Shown one piece after another: positions 1-54,352 of a stretch of 64,000 bases of DNA (within the stretch, counting starts at the first letter, position 1; each line of letters opens with the position of its first letter). The translations under genes were made by a program, and so were the position numbers. The notes under the pieces were generated by a model. That model ran no database searches. It had not been told where the DNA came from and saw only the letters and a list, made by a program, of their open reading frames with translations. The DNA lies in NCBI RefSeq assembly GCF_044324875.1, contig NZ_CP172185.1; one strand, given 5' to 3'. This DNA comes from Escherichia coli. Lineage in GTDB: Bacteria > Pseudomonadota > Gammaproteobacteria > Enterobacterales > Enterobacteriaceae.

Positions 1-1221
1 AGTAACCCGAGCGTTATGTTGTTAAGCGCCGCCGTGCTCGGTTTACTCGGCCTGGTGCCTGGAATGCCGAACCTGGTATTTTTGCTGTTCACTGCCGGAT
101 TGCTTGGGCTGGCCTGGTGGATCCGCGGACGCGAACAAAAAGCGCCTGCCGAACCAAAACCGGTAAAAATGGCAGAGAATAATGCCGTTGTCGAAGCGAC
201 GTGGAACGATGTACAACTGGAAGATTCTCTGGGAATGGAAGTGGGTTATCGCCTGATCCCGATGGTCGATTTCCAGCAGGATGGTGAGTTGCTGGGCCGT
301 ATACGCAGTATTCGCAAGAAATTTGCCCAGGAGATGGGGTTTCTGCCGCCAGTGGTGCACATTCGCGACAATATGGATCTGCAACCTGCCCGCTATCGCA
401 TTTTGATGAAAGGCGTGGAGATAGGCAGTGGTGATGCTTATCCGGGGCGTTGGTTGGCGATTAACCCTGGTACCGCTGCCGGGACGTTACCTGGTGAGGC
501 GACCGTCGATCCGGCATTTGGCCTGAATGCTATCTGGATTGAAAGTGCGCTTAAAGAACAGGCGCAGATTCAGGGGTACACCGTGGTTGAGGCCAGCACG
601 GTGGTGGCAACGCATCTTAACCACCTCATTAGCCAGCATGCCGCAGAGCTGTTTGGTCGTCAGGAGGCGCAACAGTTGCTGGATCGCGTCGCCCAGGAGA
701 TGCCAAAGCTGACGGAAGATCTCGTTCCTGGCGTCGTCACGCTCACCACACTGCATAAAGTGCTGCAAAATCTGCTCGATGAAAAAGTGCCGATTCGCGA
801 TATGCGCACTATTCTCGAAACGCTGGCGGAACATGCGCCCATCCAAAGCGATCCACATGAATTAACCGCCGTCGTGCGCGTGGCGTTGGGACGGGCGATT
901 ACCCAGCAGTGGTTTCCTGGCAAAGATGAAGTTCATGTTATTGGCCTCGATACACCGCTGGAACGTTTGTTGCTACAGGCGTTGCAGGGCGGGGGCGGAC
1001 TGGAGCCAGGGCTGGCGGATCGTTTACTGGCGCAAACTCAGGAAGCGCTATCCCGTCAGGAGATGTTGGGTGCGCCGCCAGTTTTATTGGTGAACCACGC
1101 GCTGCGACCATTATTGTCTCGCTTCCTGCGCCGCAGCTTGCCGCAGTTAGTGGTGCTGTCGAATCTGGAACTATCTGATAACCGACATATCCGCATGACG
1201 GCGACAATTGGCGGTAAATGA
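1..1221 (+). CDS. flhA: Flagellar export apparatus protein FlhA, C-terminal part (5' end lies outside the window)
   Basis: ORF 16..1221 is open in frame back to position 1; translation matches the FlhA C-terminal cytoplasmic domain as I remember it; followed by flhE with a 4-nt ATGA overlap. Confidence 0.9.
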   Translation, partial: SNPSVMLLSAAVLGLLGLVPGMPNLVFLLFTAGLLGLAWWIRGREQKAPAEPKPVKMAENNAVVEATWNDVQLEDSLGMEVGYRLIPMVDFQQDGELLGRIRSIRKKFAQEMGFLPPVVHIRDNMDLQPARYRILMKGVEIGSGDAYPGRWLAINPGTAAGTLPGEATVDPAFGLNAIWIESALKEQAQIQGYTVVEASTVVATHLNHLISQHAAELFGRQEAQQLLDRVAQEMPKLTEDLVPGVVTLTTLHKVLQNLLDEKVPIRDMRTILETLAEHAPIQSDPHELTAVVRVALGRAITQQWFPGKDEVHVIGLDTPLERLLLQALQGGGGLEPGLADRLLAQTQEALSRQEMLGAPPVLLVNHALRPLLSRFLRRSLPQLVVLSNLELSDNRHIRMTATIGGK

Positions 1222-1613
1222 TGAGAACCTTATTAGCAATATTATTGTTTCCGCTGCTGGTGCAAGCCGCCGGGGAGGGGATGTGGCAGGCGAGTAGTGT
1301 GGGCGTTACGCTGAATCACCGTGGTGAGTCGATGTCGTCAGCGCCTCTTTCTACTCGACAACCTGCTGCAGGATTGATGACGCTGGTGGCGTGGCGTTAT
1401 CAGCTTATCGGCCCGACACCTGCAGGACTGCGGGTTCGCTTGTGTTCACAATCTCGTTGTGTCGAATTAGAAGGGCAGAGTGGAACCACCGTGGCCTTTT
1501 CCGGTATACCGGCGATAGAACCGTTGCGATTTATCTGGGAAGTGCCTGGCGGTGGGCGGTTAATTCCGCCGCTAAAGGTACAACGGAATGAAGTGATTGT
1601 GAATTATCGTTAA
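1218..1613 (+). CDS. flhE: Flagellar protein FlhE
   Basis: 131-aa ORF with signal-peptide-like N-terminus (MMRTLLAILLFPLLVQA); position after flhA; start overlaps flhA stop. Confidence 0.9.
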   Translation: MMRTLLAILLFPLLVQAAGEGMWQASSVGVTLNHRGESMSSAPLSTRQPAAGLMTLVAWRYQLIGPTPAGLRVRLCSQSRCVELEGQSGTTVAFSGIPAIEPLRFIWEVPGGGRLIPPLKVQRNEVIVNYR

Positions 1614-1652
1614 TGATAAAAAAGCCGATGTCTGCCATGACATCGGCTTTTG
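1614..1652. terminator. Bidirectional hairpin terminator between convergent flhE and argS
   Basis: Perfect stem GCCGATGTC (1624-1632) / GACATCGGC (1639-1647), A-run upstream and T-run downstream. Confidence 0.6.
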
Positions 1653-1665
1653 CCGTATAACGCGA

Positions 1666-3399
1666 TTACATACGCTCTACTGTCTCAATACCCAGCGTAT
1701 CCAGACCCAGTTTCAGCGTCTTCGCCGTCAGTTGTGCCAGTTTCAGACGGCTGTTACGCACTTCTTCGTTTTCTGCGCTGAGGATCGGGCAGTGCTCGTA
1801 GAAGCCAGAGAACAGACCAGCCAGATCGTACAGGTAAGCACACATCACATGCGGCGTGCCTTCACGGGCAACCACGGTGAGGGTTTCTTCAAACTGCAGC
1901 AGGCGAGCTGCCAGTTGCGCTTCACGATCTTCACGGATGATAACCGGAGCTGCAGCCAGTTGCTCTTCGTCAATTTCTGCTTTACGGAACACGGACAATA
2001 CACGCGTGTATGCATACTGCATGTATGGCGCGGTATTACCCTCAAACGCCAGCATGTTGTCCCAGTCGAAGATGTAGTCCGTGGTGCGGTTTTTGGAGAG
2101 ATCCGCATATTTCACCGCACCAATACCAACTGCGTTAGCCAGTTTTTCCAGCTCGTCGGCTGGCATATCCGGGTTCTTTTCTGCCACCAGACGACGTGCA
2201 CGCTCCAGGGCTTCATCCAGCAGATCGGCCAGTTTCACTGTACCACCCGCGCGGGTTTTGAACGGTTTGCCGTCTTTGCCCAGCATCATGCCGAACATGT
2301 GGTGTTCCAGCGGTACGGATTCCGGTACATAGCCTGCTTTACGGACGATAGCCCACGCCTGCATCAGGTGTTGATGCTGACGGGAGTCGATGTAATACAG
2401 CACGCGATCGGCATGCAGTGTTTCATAACGATATTTCGCACAGGCGATATCAGTGGTGGTGTAGAGATAGCCACCATCTTTCTTCTGAATGATCACGCCC
2501 ATCGGTTCGCCTTCCTTGTTTTTGAACTCATCAAGGAATACGACGGTCGCGCCTTCACTTTCTACTGCCAGACCTTTGGCTTTCAGGTCCGCCACGATAC
2601 CCGGCAGCATTGGGTTGTAGAGACTTTCACCCATGACGTCATCGCGGGTCAACGTCACGTTCAGACGATCGTAGGTGATCTGGTTCTGCGTCATGGTGAT
2701 GTCGACCAGTTTGCGCCACATCTCGCGGAAATATTCGTCACCGCTTTGCAGTTTGACTACGTAGTTACGTGCACGCTCGGCAAACTCTTCATCTTCGTCG
2801 TAATGCTTTTTCGCATCGCGGTAGAAACCTTCAAGGTCAGCCAGCTCCATTTCACCGGCGTTTTCTTGCTGCTGCTTTTCCAACCACGCAATCAGCATAC
2901 CGAACTGAGTACCCCAGTCGCCGACGTGGTTCGCGCGAATCACTTTGTGACCGAGGAACTCCAGAGTACGCACTGCCGCGTCACCAATAATGGTAGAGCG
3001 CAGGTGACCGACGTGCATCTCTTTCGCCACGTTCGGAGCGGAGTAGTCAACCACAATGGTCTGTTTTTCTGGCGTAGCAACACCGAGACGATCGGACGCC
3101 AGCGCCTGCTGAACATGATCAGCCAGGAAGGCTGGATCAAGAAAAATGTTGATAAAGCCTGGACCGGCGATCTCAACTTTGCTGGCGATACCGTTAAGAT
3201 CCAGATGAGTCAGCACCTGCTCTGCTAATTGTCGCGGTGCCATACCCAGTTTTTTAGCAACTGCCATCATGCCGTTAGCCTGATAGTCGCCGAACTGAAC
3301 TTTTGCTGACTGACGAACCTGCGGTTCGCAATCCGCAGGCGCGCCTGCCGCAATCATGGCCTGACGGACTTTTTCTGAGAGAAGAGCCTGAATATTCAC
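1666..3399 (-). CDS. argS: Arginine--tRNA ligase
   Basis: 577-aa ORF, translation [21 protein letters not shown]... with HVGH class-I motif; length matches ArgS. Confidence 0.95.
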
Positions 3400-3614
3400 C
3401 GGAATACCTTACATTGATGAAGCGAGCAAAAATTGCCCGCACCAGTTAAAGAAATTAGGGCGGGAGTATACTGCAAATGGCTGTTTTCGTCAGCAACGTG
3501 CGCGTGGCGTATTGCCGTTTTCACTATTGCATCAGAAGCGGCGTGAAATCAGCGGTTGGTTGGCGCAGGGCAACAGGGTAAATTAACGCTTTTACTGAAA
3601 GACGAAGAGTGATT

Positions 3615-4181
3615 ATGGCGAACTGGCAATCTATCGACGAGTTGCAGGATATTGCATCGGATTTACCGCGATTTACCCACGCATTAGATGAACTTTCCCG
3701 CCGTCTGGGGTTGGATATCACTCCGCTGACTGCCGATCACATTTCCTTGCGTTGCCATCAAAACGTCACCGCTGAACGCTGGCGTCGCGGGTTTGAACAG
3801 TGCGGCGAGCTTTTGTCAGAAAATATGATCAATGGCAGACCGATTTGTCTGTTTAAATTGCATGAACCGGTACAGGTTGCGCACTGGCAGTTTTCCATTG
3901 TGGAGCTACCGTGGCCCGGGGAAAAACGTTACCCGCACGAAGGTTGGGAACATATTGAAATCGTTCTGCCGGGCGATCCAGAAACGCTGAATGCCCGTGC
4001 GCTGGCATTGCTTTCTGATGAAGGACTCAGCCTGCCGGGGATCTCAGTTAAAACCAGTTCGCCAAAAGGTGAGCATGAGCGATTACCGAACCCGACGCTG
4101 GCGGTCACCGATGGCAAAACGACCATTAAATTTCATCCGTGGTCCATTGAAGAGATCGTTGCCAGCGAGCAGTCAGCGTAA
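3615..4181 (+). CDS. yecM: YecM, putative metal-binding enzyme
   Basis: ORF 3609..4181; ATG at 3615 chosen to give the remembered 188 aa; synteny argS-yecM-cutC. Confidence 0.8.
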   Translation: MANWQSIDELQDIASDLPRFTHALDELSRRLGLDITPLTADHISLRCHQNVTAERWRRGFEQCGELLSENMINGRPICLFKLHEPVQVAHWQFSIVELPWPGEKRYPHEGWEHIEIVLPGDPETLNARALALLSDEGLSLPGISVKTSSPKGEHERLPNPTLAVTDGKTTIKFHPWSIEEIVASEQSA

Positions 4182-4185
4182 TTAA

Positions 4186-4941
<756 letters not shown>

Positions 4942-4987
4942 TTTTTACCGTTGCATCATGTCGCCCAATATGATGCTTGCTCGTACC

Positions 4988-5021
4988 AGGCCCCTGCAAT
5001 TTCAACAGGGGCCTTTTTTTA
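4988..5021 (+). terminator. Rho-independent terminator after cutC
   Basis: Stem AGGCCCCTG / CAGGGGCCT followed by a T7 run. Confidence 0.6.
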
Positions 5022-5275
5022 TCCCCGAGAAGTATAAAAAACGAACGATTTCGGTGATCAGTTGAGCGCGTGACAGTGCGCATAGCGTTGTGCTAAAAAT
5101 TTTTATACATTCATATTAATTATGTAATTTAAATTACTAAAACTGACAAATATATATTCTAAATAACAACTGGGTTATTCTTTAGCAATTAATGATTACA
5201 TTGTAATAAATCATATTCTTGGTGATGCTGCCAACTTACTGATTTAGTGTATGATGGTGTTTTTGAGGTGCTCCA

Positions 5276-5551
5276 GTGGCTTCTGTTTCTATCAGCTGTC
5301 CCTCCTGTTCAGCTACTGACGGGGTGGTGCGTAACGGCAAAAGCACCGCCGGACATCAGCGCTATCTCTGCTCTCACTGCCGTAAAACATGGCAACTGCA
5401 GTTCACTTACACCGCTTCTCAACCCGGTACGCACCAGAAAATCATTGATATGGCCATGAATGGCGTTGGATGCCGGGCAACTGCCCGCATTATGGGCGTT
5501 GGCCTCAACACGATTTTACGTCACTTAAAAAACTCAGGCCGCAGTCGGTAA
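5276..5551 (+). CDS. insA: IS1 InsA
   Basis: 91-aa [46 protein letters not shown]... identical in character to IS1 InsA (zinc-finger N-terminus). Confidence 0.9.
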
Positions 5552-5973
5552 CCTCGCGCATACAGCCGGGCAGTGACGTCATCGTCTGCGCGGAAATGGA
5601 CGAACAGTGGGGCTATGTCGGGGCTAAATCGCGCCAGCGCTGGCTGTTTTACGCGTATGACAGGCTCCGGAAGACGGTTGTTGCGCACGTATTCGGTGAA
5701 CGCACTATGGCGACGCTGGGGCGTCTTATGAGCCTGCTGTCACCCTTTGACGTGGTGATATGGATGACGGATGGCTGGCCACTGTATGAATCCCGCCTGA
5801 AGGGAAAGCTGCACGTAATCAGCAAGCGATATACGCAGCGAATTGAGCGGCATAACCTGAATCTGAGGCAGCACCTGGCACGGCTGGGACGGAAGTCGCT
5901 GTCGTTCTCAAAATCGGTGGAGCTGCATGACAAAGTCATCGGGCATTATCTGAACATAAAACACTATCAATAA
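5470..5973 (+). CDS. insB: IS1 InsB reading frame (expressed as InsAB' transposase by -1 frameshift)
   Basis: 167-aa ORF in the -1 frame overlapping the insA 3' end; matches IS1 InsB as I remember it. Confidence 0.85.
5525..5533 (+). other. IS1 programmed -1 ribosomal frameshift motif TTAAAAAAC
   Basis: A6C slippery motif sits in the insA/insB overlap, where the IS1 frameshift is known to occur. Confidence 0.7.
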
Positions 5974-6103
5974 GTTGGAGTCATTACCCATATTCTTTAT
6001 CGATTATTTCAGGCAGTGTTGTGCCGAATTATGCAAGCGGTCAATTCGTTGTATATTTAATTATACAATGATTTCGGTGTTCTGGAATTAATTAGAGGAA
6101 TCT

Positions 6104-7204
6104 ATGCGAGGGAAAAAACGCATTGGGTTAATGTTTTTGCTGATAGCGGTTGTGGTTGGTGGCGGCGGGTTATTGCTGGCGCAAAAAGCCTTACATAAAA
6201 CGTCGGATACCGCATTTTGCCTTTCCTGCCACTCGATGAGTAAACCTTTTGAGGAATATCAGGGAACTGTCCACTTTTCGAACCAGAAAGGGATACGTGC
6301 GGAATGTGCCGATTGCCATATTCCAAAGTCAGGGATGAATTATTTATTTGCTAAATTAAAAGCTTCTAAAGATATTTATCATGAATTTGTTAGCGGCAAA
6401 ATAGACAGTGACGATAAATTCGAAGCGCATCGTCAGGAAATGGCCGAAACAGTATGGAAAGAATTAAAAGCAACTGATTCTGCAACGTGTCGTAGTTGCC
6501 ATTCTTTTGATGCCATGGATATTGCCTCGCAAAGTGAATCTGCGCAGAAAATGCATACCAAAGCGCAAAAGGACGGCGAAACCTGTATCGATTGTCATAA
6601 AGGCATTGCCCATTTTCCACCAGAAATAAAAATGGATGACAACGCGGCGCATGAGCTGGAAAGTCAGGCCGCTACTTCAGTTACCAATGGCGCACATATT
6701 TATCCTTTCAAACCTTCCCGCATAGGCGAACTGGCCACTGTGAATCCTGGTACCGATCTCACCGTCGTTGATGCCAGTGGCAAACAGCCGATCGTTCTGT
6801 TGCAGGGTTATCAAATGCAGGGCAGTGAAAGCACGCTCTACCTGGCGGCAGGTCAACGTCTGGCGCTAGCCACATTAAGTGATGAAGGTATCAAGGCGCT
6901 GACGGTAAACGGGGAATGGCAGGCTGACGAATACGGCAATCAATGGCGTCAGGCGTCTTTACAGGGTGTGCTTACCGATCCCGCATTAGCGGACCGTAAA
7001 CCGCTATGGCAATACGCTGAAAAACTTGACGATACCTATTGCGCTGGTTGCCATGCCCCTATTGCCTCCGACCATTACACCGTCAATGCTTGGCCGTCCA
7101 TTGCCAAAGGTATGGGGGCGCGAACCAGCATGAGCGAAAACGAACTGGACATTTTGACGCGGTACTTCCAGTACAACGCCAAAGATATTACCGAGAAACA
7201 GTGA
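6104..7204 (+). CDS. torY: Pentahaem c-type cytochrome TorY (NapC/NirT family)
   Basis: 366-aa ORF with N-terminal membrane anchor and multiple CxxCH haem motifs (CLSCH, CADCH, CRSCH, CIDCH, CAGCH). Confidence 0.9.
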
Positions 7205-7228
7205 TCCTCGTTGATCAGGGAGGAAGTT

Positions 7229-9658
7229 ATGACATTAACAAGACGTGAATTTATTAAACACAGCGGTATTGCCGCTGGGGCGCTGGTGGTGACATCGGCT
7301 GCACCGCTACCCGCATGGGCAGAAGAGAAGGGTGGCAAAATCCTCACCGCGGGCCGTTGGGGAGCGATGAACGTAGAAGTGAAGGACGGCAAGATTGTTT
7401 CTTCGACAGGCGCGCTGGCGAAAACCATACCGAACTCCTTACAGTCTACGGCGGCGGATCAGGTACACACCACGGCGCGTATTCAGCATCCGATGGTGAG
7501 AAAAAGCTATCTCGATAATCCACAGCAACCGGCGAAAGGTCGTGGCGAAGATACCTATGTACAGGTGAGCTGGGAACAAGCATTAAAACTGATTCATGAG
7601 CAACATGATCGTATTCGTAAAGCTAACGGACCATCGGCCATTTTTGCCGGATCTTACGGCTGGCGCTCTTCTGGCGTGTTGCATAAAGCGCAAACCTTAC
7701 TGCAACGTTATATGAACCTGGCGGGCGGTTATTCCGGGCATAGCGGCGATTATTCAACCGGTGCGGCACAGGTGATCATGCCGCATGTGGTGGGTTCCGT
7801 GGAGGTGTATGAACAGCAGACCTCCTGGCCGCTGATTCTGGAAAACAGCCAGGTTGTGGTGCTGTGGGGGATGAACCCGCTGAATACCTTAAAAATTGCC
7901 TGGAGCAGTACCGATGAGCAAGGGCTGGAATACTTCCATCAGCTGAAAAAATCTGGCAAACCAGTGATTGCCATTGATCCTATCCGCTCCGAAACCATCG
8001 ACTTCTTTGGCGATAACGCCACATGGATCGCCCCAAATATGGGTACCGACGTGGCGTTGATGTTAGGGATTGCGCACACCTTGATGGTACAAGGTAAGCA
8101 CGATAAGGCCTTCCTGGAAAAATACACCACCGGCTACCCGCAGTTTGAAGAGTATCTGGCAGGCAAGAGCGATAATACGCCGAAGAGCGCGGCCTGGGCG
8201 GCGGAAATTACTGGCGTACCGGAAGCGCAGATAGTCAAACTCGCTGAACTGATGGCGGCGAATCGCACAATGCTGATGGCAGGCTGGGGAATTCAGCGCC
8301 AGCAATATGGTGAACAGAAACACTGGATGCTGGTGACGCTGGCGGCGATGTTAGGGCAGATTGGTACACCGGGCGGCGGTTTTGGTTTCTCTTATCATTA
8401 CTCCAACGGTGGTAACTCGACGCGTGTTGGCGGCGTGCTGCCGGAAATGTCTGCGGCGATTGCCGGACAGGCCAGTGAGGCCGCTGATGATGGCGGAATG
8501 ACGGCGATTCCTGTTGCCCGTATCGTCGATGCGCTGGAAAATCCTGGCGGAAAATATCAGCATAACGGTAAAGAACAAACGTATCCGAATATCAAAATGA
8601 TCTGGTGGGCGGGTGGCGGTAACTTTACCCATCACCAGGATACTAATCGTCTGATCAAAGCCTGGCAGAAACCGGAGATGATCGTCGTTTCTGAATGCTA
8701 CTGGACCGCAGCTGCTAAACATGCAGATATCGTATTACCGATCACCACATCGTTTGAGCGCAATGACTTGACGATGACCGGTGATTACAGCAACCAGCAT
8801 ATTGTACCGATGAAGCAGGCTGTCGCTGCGCAATTTGAAGCGCGTAACGATTTTGACGTGTTTGCCGATCTTGCTGAATTACTCAAACCTGGCGGAAAAG
8901 AGATCTATACCGAAGGTAGAGATGAAATGGCGTGGCTGAAATTTTTCTATGATGCCGCTCAGAAAGGTGCCCGTGCGCAACGCGTGACTATGCCGATGTT
9001 TAATGCCTTCTGGCAGCAAAATAAACTGATCGAAATGCGCCGCAGCGAGAAGAACGAACAGTACGTTCGTTATGGTGATTTCCGCGCCGATCCGGTGAAA
9101 AATGCGCTGGGTACGCCAAGCGGCAAAATTGAGATTTACTCCAAAACGCTGGAAAAATTTGGCTATAAGGATTGCCCGGCACACCCAACCTGGCTTGCGC
9201 CTGATGAGTGGAAAGGTTCCGCCGACGAGAAGCAGTTGCAGCTTCTGACCGCACATCCGGCACACCGTTTACACAGTCAGCTTAACTATGCGGAACTGCG
9301 TAAAAAATATGCGGTTGCCGATCGTGAACCGATCACTATTCACACCGAAGATGCTGCTCGCTTTGGTATTGCGAATGGCGATCTGGTGCGTGTCTGGAAC
9401 AAACGTGGTCAGATTCTGACAGGCGCGGTGGTGACTGACGGGATCAAAAAAGGCGTGGTATGCGTGCATGAAGGTGCATGGCCAGATCTGGAAAATGGCT
9501 TGTGTAAAAACGGCAGTGCGAACGTGTTAACGGCGGATATCCCCAGCTCTCAGCTGGCAAATGCCTGTGCCGGTAACTCTGCGCTGGTGTATATCGAAAA
9601 ATATACGGGCAATGCACCGAAGTTAACGGCGTTTGATCAGCCAGCTGTTCAGGCATAA
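7229..9658 (+). CDS. torZ: Trimethylamine-N-oxide reductase 2, molybdoenzyme TorZ (BisZ)
   Basis: ORF 7211..9658; ATG at 7229 preceded by GGGAGGAAG; twin-arginine signal (TRREFIK); about 809 aa as expected for TorZ. Confidence 0.9.
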
Positions 9659-32122: not shown

Positions 32123-32127
32123 AAGTC

Positions 32128-32158
32128 AAAATGCCCGATCCTCGATCGGGCATTTTGG
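32128..32158. terminator. Hairpin terminator between convergent eda and purT
   Basis: ATGCCCGATC-CTC-GATCGGGCAT followed by TTTT; A-rich on the other side. Confidence 0.6.
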
Positions 32159-54304: not shown

Positions 54305-54320
54305 TATGAAGTAAATACTA

Positions 54321-54352
54321 AAAAGCGCGTCCTGATCGACGCGCTTTTTTTG
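54321..54352 (+). terminator. Rho-independent terminator after htpX
   Basis: GCGCGTC...GACGCGC stem followed by a T7 run. Confidence 0.6.

Follow-up and report, generated by a model that had tools for sequence, protein, structure and literature searches.

Which sequence separates the flagellar gene flhE from argS in this E. coli, and why is the small gene yecT missing from it? An earlier note on the same DNA had described the two genes as converging on one shared hairpin and had attributed the absence of yecT to a strain-level indel. We addressed the question in the window, i.e. the whole analyzed stretch of 64 kb, which begins inside flhA (ORF 16–1221). The comparisons described here make it quite likely that Escherichia has two long-standing alleles of the flhE-argS interval, of which the window carries the "short" one, and that the sole functional element of this allele is a Rho-independent terminator hairpin. 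The interval and its neighbors comprise the following features:

1221–1613, plus strand: flhE coding sequence, last gene of the flhBAE flagellar operon, with the stop codon TAA at 1611–1613 (ORF list; Pfam FlhE, PF06366, E = 3e-41).
1666–3399, minus strand: argS (arginine--tRNA ligase) coding sequence with a GTG start codon and the stop codon TAA at 1666–1668 (ORF and RefSeq annotation of the matching strain).
1614–1665, no strand: flhE-argS intergenic region of 52 bp, the "short allele" (sequence and alignment with the K-12 type and Nissle).
About 1611–1662: allele-specific part of the interval; the last three nucleotides (CGA, 1663–1665) are common to the K-12-type allele.
1618–1623: A6 run, the U6 tract of the putative argS-sense terminator and the A-tract upstream of the hairpin in the flhE sense.
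1624–1647: core hairpin with the 9-bp stem GCCGATGTC / GACATCGGC, six G-C pairs and the 6-nt loop TGCCAT (1633–1638).
1648–1651, plus strand: T4 run, the short U-tract of the putative flhE-sense terminator.
1652–1665: spacer of 14 nt from the hairpin and its T-run to the argS stop codon.

The anatomy of the gap can be read directly from the sequence. As the earlier note had it, the flhE stop (1613) and the argS stop (1666) are 52 bp apart with no gene between them. These coordinates are exact, and the RefSeq annotation of a strain that is identical to the window over 1300–2000 likewise shows a 393-nt flhE followed by argS with nothing between. The gap consists of TGAT, AAAAAA, GCCGATGTC, TGCCAT, GACATCGGC, TTTT and GCCGTATAACGCGA, in this order. 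The ORF list contained no plausible reading frame within the 52 bp; the two ORFs of at least 30 amino acids that touch the gap (1531–1638 on the minus strand and 1650–1781 on the plus strand) lie mostly within flhE or argS.

At the end of flhE, two in-frame stop codons stand in tandem at window positions 1611–1616 in the E. coli short-allele strains, TAA and then TGA (1614–1616). In E. albertii and in a divergent genome labelled E. coli SCPM-O-B-8794 (L005) the first of these codons is CAG or CAA. FlhE is there one residue longer and ends at the TGA.

The statement in the earlier note that K-12 carries yecT between argS and flhE agreed with the MG1655 annotation, where the gene order is argS (b1876), yecV (b4778), yecT (b1877) and flhE (b1878); the additional gene yecV had not been mentioned. 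The distance between flhE and argS amounts to 784 bp in the K-12 derivative NEB10-beta versus 52 bp in the window. The pair of yecT and yecV that marks the K-12 type is not present in the ORF-free 52-bp gap, and a tblastn search with YecT gave no match in window 1–8000. The ArgS proteins of the window and of the K-12 type are 100% identical (tblastn). Homology between the two alleles ended at the last flhE codon, which is followed by the stop TAA in the window and by TGA in K-12, and resumed 3 nt beyond the argS stop. The yecT/yecV cassette fills exactly this interval, from the flhE stop to 3 nt past the argS stop. The argS-proximal hairpin also differed by allele, being GCCGATGTC...GACATCGGC in the window versus GCCTGATC...GATCAGGC in the K-12 type (written in full, AGCCTGATC-loop-GATCAGGCT). 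The only stretch common to both alleles was the 11-nt ATAAAAAAGCC (BLAST, word size 7). A resemblance of K-12 AAAAAGGCTCGATGTCTTG to AAAAAAGCCGATGTCTG of the short allele was judged to be due to chance; E1V33 and E. whittamii differ more at this place.

A simple insertion or deletion was ruled out by a three-way alignment and by junctions that are non-homologous across the whole gap. The indel proposed in the earlier note thus has to be given up: alignment with the K-12 interval revealed that the whole intergenic sequence is replaced, and neither the hairpin nor the flhE stop codon is the one found in K-12. That yecT and yecV stand in the K-12 interval but not in the window would agree with a recent loss of yecT by deletion next to the flagellar genes, but we consider such a strain-level event highly improbable. 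The K-12 interval does not contain the 52 bp of the window; the two share only an 11-mer, so that no deletion of K-12 sequence can yield the window sequence. Moreover, the same junction was found in 1,782 of 5,426 genomes, and E. albertii and L005 likewise have this junction and stem, which have diverged there about as much as their flanks.

The frequencies of the two forms were determined in 5,426 complete E. coli genomes. With at least 80% coverage of a 111-bp junction-spanning query as the measure, 1,782 genomes carried the short form, and the yecT/yecV cassette was matched in 3,642. The two numbers add up to 5,424 of 5,426. Therefore, the two forms constitute a species-wide two-allele polymorphism. 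The absence of yecT is hence not a strain-level trait, and both forms were encountered in other Escherichia species too. Strains with the short form include CFT073, Nissle 1917 and IHE3034, all of which we take to belong to phylogroup B2. The long form was found in K-12, a BL21(DE3) derivative, O157:H7, O55:H7, O111:H8 and O103:H2. The single conserved junction argues against many independent origins of the short form.

About 150 of 5,425 matching genomes matched only the argS half of a 701-bp query, beginning at query position 364. This position corresponds to window position 1663, the exact argS-side boundary of the allele. These genomes have flhE either deleted or moved; in one case the query also matched at another site of the chromosome.

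Further downstream the window contains an IS1 element at 5200–6000, with an insA-like ORF (5276–5551) and an insB-like ORF (5470–5973), placed between cutC (4195–4941) and a torY-like ORF (6104–7204). Strain CFSAN061763, which is identical to the window over 1300–2000, lacks IS1 at this place. An IS1 in the interval between cutC and the torY-like ORF was detected in 11 of 5,426 complete E. coli genomes, the best of which was only 97.6% identical over the query. The insertion looks strain- or lineage-specific.

The distribution outside of E. coli was followed with an FlhE-anchored scan of one genome per species, which yielded 59 loci. The short allele was present in E. albertii and L005, and the long allele with yecT in E. 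whittamii and Escherichia sp. E1V33. Divergence was determined from comparisons within the same allele only; short-versus-long identities, in which 52 nt are spread over 784, were discarded. Between K-12 and E1V33 the cassette showed 94.5% identity, and flhE and argS 93.8%. Between K-12 and E. whittamii the values were 91.8% for the cassette and 90.0% and 93.9% for the flanks. Similarly, the gap of the window was 86.5% identical to that of E. albertii, with 87.4% and 93.8% for the flanks. The flanks followed the species, not the allele. Because each allele has diverged about as much as its own flanks, the data fit an old dimorphism, in which the alleles would predate the species splits or would have been exchanged long ago, as judged from four non-E. 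coli Escherichia genomes that include neither E. fergusonii nor E. marmotae.

Citrobacter, Enterobacter, Leclercia, Pseudescherichia and other genera have about 3 kb between flhE and argS, with genes for an MFS_2 sugar transporter and a GH88 hydrolase. Searches with blastn-short and tblastn detected no remnants of this MFS/GH88 block in either Escherichia allele beyond the argS coding end. Consequently, both Escherichia states appear to be derived. The short form may have come first, with a later gain of the cassette, or the cassette may have come first and been replaced. A conserved box, AGAAACGCTGTTTTATAAA, lies ahead of the MFS_2/GH88 pair in most Enterobacteriaceae outside Escherichia, about 60–100 nt downstream of flhE (L008–L062; e.g., L008 3940–3980). 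This box has the appearance of an operator site of a sugar-acid regulator and may resemble KdgR-type sites.

The hairpin of the short allele was then characterized by folding. Positions 1620–1651 form a perfect inverted repeat with two arms of 13 nt (1620–1632 and 1639–1651), which are 100% complementary, and a 6-nt loop. The core, GC-containing stem comprises 9 bp (1624–1632 with 1639–1647), and the outer four pairs join the A-run with the T-run. In a context of 71 nt, minimum free energies of −25.4 kcal/mol (plus strand, z = −4.3) and −25.5 kcal/mol (minus strand, z = −4.4) were calculated, and none of 200 shuffles of this context folded as well. Folded alone, the hairpin reached −15.4 and −16.0 kcal/mol. 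The single symmetric hairpin with an A-run and a T-run, as claimed in the earlier note, was thus found as a perfect hairpin; its symmetry is only rough, with A6 versus T4, i.e. six U after the stem in the argS sense and four in the flhE sense.

The 64-kb window contains five perfect stem-loops with a true loop and arms of 12 nt or more, the flhE-argS hairpin included, and three of the five, again including this one, have the A-run/T-run build. The other two of this build are located at 32127–32157 (CAAAATGCCCGATC/GATCGGGCATTTTG) and 54320–54349 (AAAAAGCGCGTC/GACGCGCTTTTT) and are likely further bidirectional terminators.

The palindrome could in principle derive from a repeated or mobile element, such as a REP/BIME-like unit or the end of a transposon, or be bound by a protein as DNA rather than form an RNA hairpin. 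A stem that is invariant and not covarying would fit a constraint at the DNA level as well. Elements of the REP/BIME type are defined by many palindrome copies per genome, but no second copy of the hairpin was detected within the 64-kb window with up to three mismatches allowed, and the 111-bp junction query matched at a median of one place per genome in 3,514 matching genomes. A binding site would hardly explain the A-run and T-run flanks and the place directly after two stop codons, which suit a terminator, nor a loop that is free to change in sequence and length. We therefore give very little credit to this explanation and retain the hairpin as an RNA structure. It had no credible Rfam match. 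A match to SgrS inside argS reached 15.8 bits, below the gathering score of 37, and was dismissed as noise.

In order to describe the conservation of the hairpin, 12 short-allele sequences were aligned (10 from E. coli, L005 and E. albertii). The A6 run and the core stem (18 columns) together make up 24 columns, of which only one was variable, versus 14 of 31 in the rest of the gap (Fisher p = 0.0007). The A6 run was invariant in all 12 sequences, and the single variable column belonged to the 18 of the stem. In the loop, seven of nine columns varied and the length was either 6 nt or 9 nt; in the spacer (1652–1665) five of 14 columns varied. In the T-run on the flhE side, E. albertii agreed with the window type (TTTT); L005 had CTTT, and CFT073, Nissle, IHE3034 and AZ153 had TGTT. 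The alignment gave no obvious compensation for TGTT in the B2-type strains. As the stem is invariant and not covarying, its conservation is equally consistent with a DNA-level constraint.

From this structure we infer termination, with unequal strength in the two directions. In the sense of argS, the hairpin has a stable stem-loop of the expected dimensions (stem about 5–14 bp, loop 3–8 nt; −15.4 kcal/mol alone, z = −4.4), a U-rich tract 3' of the stem (UUUUUUAUCA directly after the core stem) and a position close to the stop codon, with the core stem 18 nt past the argS stop. A consensus terminator scan with a threshold of at least 5 T in 8 called a terminator on the minus strand, with 13 pairs, six of them G-C, and the tail TTATCATTAA directly after the stem, the last four T of which were already counted as paired. 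On the plus strand no terminator was called: the core stem begins 10 nt past the flhE stop codon, and UUUU followed by GCCG stays below the threshold. A discriminant combining hairpin energy and U-tail (after d'Aubenton-Carafa et al. 1990; all values are approximate) gave +22 to +31 for argS in every lineage. For flhE, the window and E. albertii reached a marginal +5.9, and B2-type strains and L005, where the T-run is broken, scored −18 to −36. Because the stem and the argS-sense U6 are nearly invariant and the loop, the spacer and the flhE-sense T-run are variable, the hairpin would be a strong terminator of argS and only a marginal one of flhBAE. The conservation pattern suggests that argS termination is the function kept by selection.

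The two sides of the locus would then work as follows. An RNA polymerase leaving argS on the minus strand would transcribe an 18-nt spacer, a GC-rich stem of 9 bp (13 bp with the A-U extension) and UUUUUU, which together would represent a canonical strong terminator. A polymerase leaving flhE on the plus strand would meet the same stem 10 nt past the stop, followed only by UUUU and then GCC. Part of the flhBAE transcription is probably stopped at the hairpin with the help of pausing and of head-on encounters with argS polymerases; such encounters could offset the weak flhE-sense U-tract. As a net effect, the housekeeping argS and the flagellar flhBAE transcripts would be kept from running antisense into each other.

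It is possible, if somewhat doubtful, that the hairpin terminates argS only and that flhBAE transcription ends in another way: through Rho, acting on untranslated RNA antisense to argS, through collisions with argS polymerases, or with low-level read-through. The terminator scan passed the minus-strand site alone, and the flhE-sense scores are marginal to negative. In line with such an explanation, the flhE-sense U-tract has just four nucleotides, which other short-allele lineages do not keep intact (TGTT, CTTT), and the argS-sense U6 is invariant; the K-12-type argS hairpin has no U-tract at all on its other side. However, the hairpin of about −16 kcal/mol is immediately followed by four U in the window, and its stem can be lengthened by the upstream A6, which is the usual build of a bidirectional terminator. 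The TTTT of the window type is also kept in E. albertii, and between flhE and argS no other hairpin is available for the flhE side. We therefore prefer a terminator that is strong for argS and marginal for flhBAE. The "shared" hairpin of the earlier note is plausible by its placement, but the sharing is unequal: the argS side is strong and conserved, the flhE side marginal and degraded elsewhere. Since termination in the flhE sense would be marginal in the window strain and is not conserved, "shared" may overstate this direction.

The allele that is not present in the window was examined as well. The cassette of 784 bp (L001 1809–2592) has a G+C content of 39% versus about 53% for flhE and argS. 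YecT (L001 1931–2416) belongs to the LprI/DUF1311 family (PF07007), and YecV consists of 14 amino acids. Judged by eye, the N-terminus of YecT (VFKFLVLTLGIISCQAYA, then EDT) looks like a signal peptide, and on this basis YecT looks like a periplasmic LprI/DUF1311 protein. No solved structure related to YecT was found. BglJ-RcsB activates the gene, and loss of H-NS/StpA derepresses it somewhat (PMC3950696).

Close relatives of YecT were restricted to Escherichia and Shigella. Four homologs with about 60% identity were examined. Two of them (L071, L072) lie inside T6SS clusters at the place of the immunity gene: they are preceded by an effector gene that is linked to VgrG and has a predicted domain for peptidoglycan hydrolysis (CHAP, or a weak pesticin match), and followed by a PAAR gene. 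The other two (L074, L075) are stand-alone genes outside T6SS clusters. DUF1311 proteins have been documented as T6SS immunity proteins (PMC12135965, PMC12981562). The flhE-argS interval might accordingly represent a long-lived trans-species presence/absence polymorphism for an orphan T6SS immunity gene, in which the yecT allele would protect against a muramidase-type effector from competing cells and the short allele would leave the cell without protection. We regard this as rather unlikely, the support being circumstantial; an orphan-immunity role of yecT is a reasonable lead. The family membership, the putative signal peptide, the homologs in T6SS clusters, the AT-rich cassette, the influence of H-NS/StpA and the divergence of the alleles at the pace of their flanks speak for it; the two of four homologs that stand alone outside T6SS clusters were counted against it. 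The T6SS locus L072 had no megablast match in E. coli genomes; its distant matches were on Enterobacter plasmids, annotated as a pesticin-like muramidase.

YecT and its T6SS-linked relatives (L072 4465–4836 and 5001–5483) gave weak matches, far below threshold, to the NCBIfam "UmoC family flagellar biogenesis regulator". With 36 bits against a cutoff of 120, membership of YecT in the UmoC family was rejected. The match is curious in that yecT adjoins the flagellar flhBAE and L074, one of the relatives, has flgD and flgE in its vicinity; a shared LprI/DUF1311 fold is probably all that it reflects.

A hairpin of this kind is a textbook terminator, and differences in the presence of small genes between E. 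coli lineages are routine. The locus is of little importance in itself and of modest importance in practice: terminator and 3'-end maps of K-12 are not applicable here to the third of E. coli with the short allele, including CFT073, Nissle 1917 and IHE3034. In these strains flhBAE and the essential argS are parted by one hairpin with a weak or degraded flhE-facing side, so that antisense read-through into argS or flhE would be possible. If yecT were an orphan T6SS immunity gene, the dimorphism would carry ecological meaning.

According to 10.1101/2022.10.23.513370, which cites Ju et al. 2019, bidirectional terminators between convergent gene pairs are prevalent in E. coli; the same source states that head-on polymerase encounters contribute to termination. 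The build of such terminators, a convergent pair tens of bases apart with one hairpin between an A-tract and a T-tract, is also that of the flhE-argS gap, where A6, the stem-loop and T4 follow each other at 1618–1651. The role of the hairpin is presumably the same, namely to provide defined 3' ends for both transcripts without antisense read-through. In contrast to such terminators, the tracts are unequal here, with A6 versus T4. A further difference is the degraded T-side in other short-allele lineages, which makes bidirectionality doubtful outside the window-type strains. The transcript-end maps come from K-12 and hence from the other allele, and termination at the short-allele hairpin is predicted from its sequence.

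In the other Enterobacteriaceae, as in the window, flhE and argS are neighbors with opposite orientation, and a hairpin with a U-tract of its own comes after argS. This hairpin, AAACCCGGC...GCCGGGTTT, is unlike either of the two Escherichia hairpins. A close counterpart is the argS terminator of K-12. Its inner stem, loop and spacer differ from those of the window, with only ATAAAAAAGCC in common, and its far side faces yecV and has no U-tract, which would make it unidirectional. The terminator scan did not call this hairpin in the K-12 interval, whereas folding showed it clearly. Like the hairpin of the window, it starts about 20 nt past the argS stop and consists of an AAGCC...GGCTT outer stem followed by U6. 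Its energy is similar (−16.8 kcal/mol versus −15.4 kcal/mol in the window), and it displays the same evolutionary pattern, with a stem that is conserved across three species and a loop that is free to vary.
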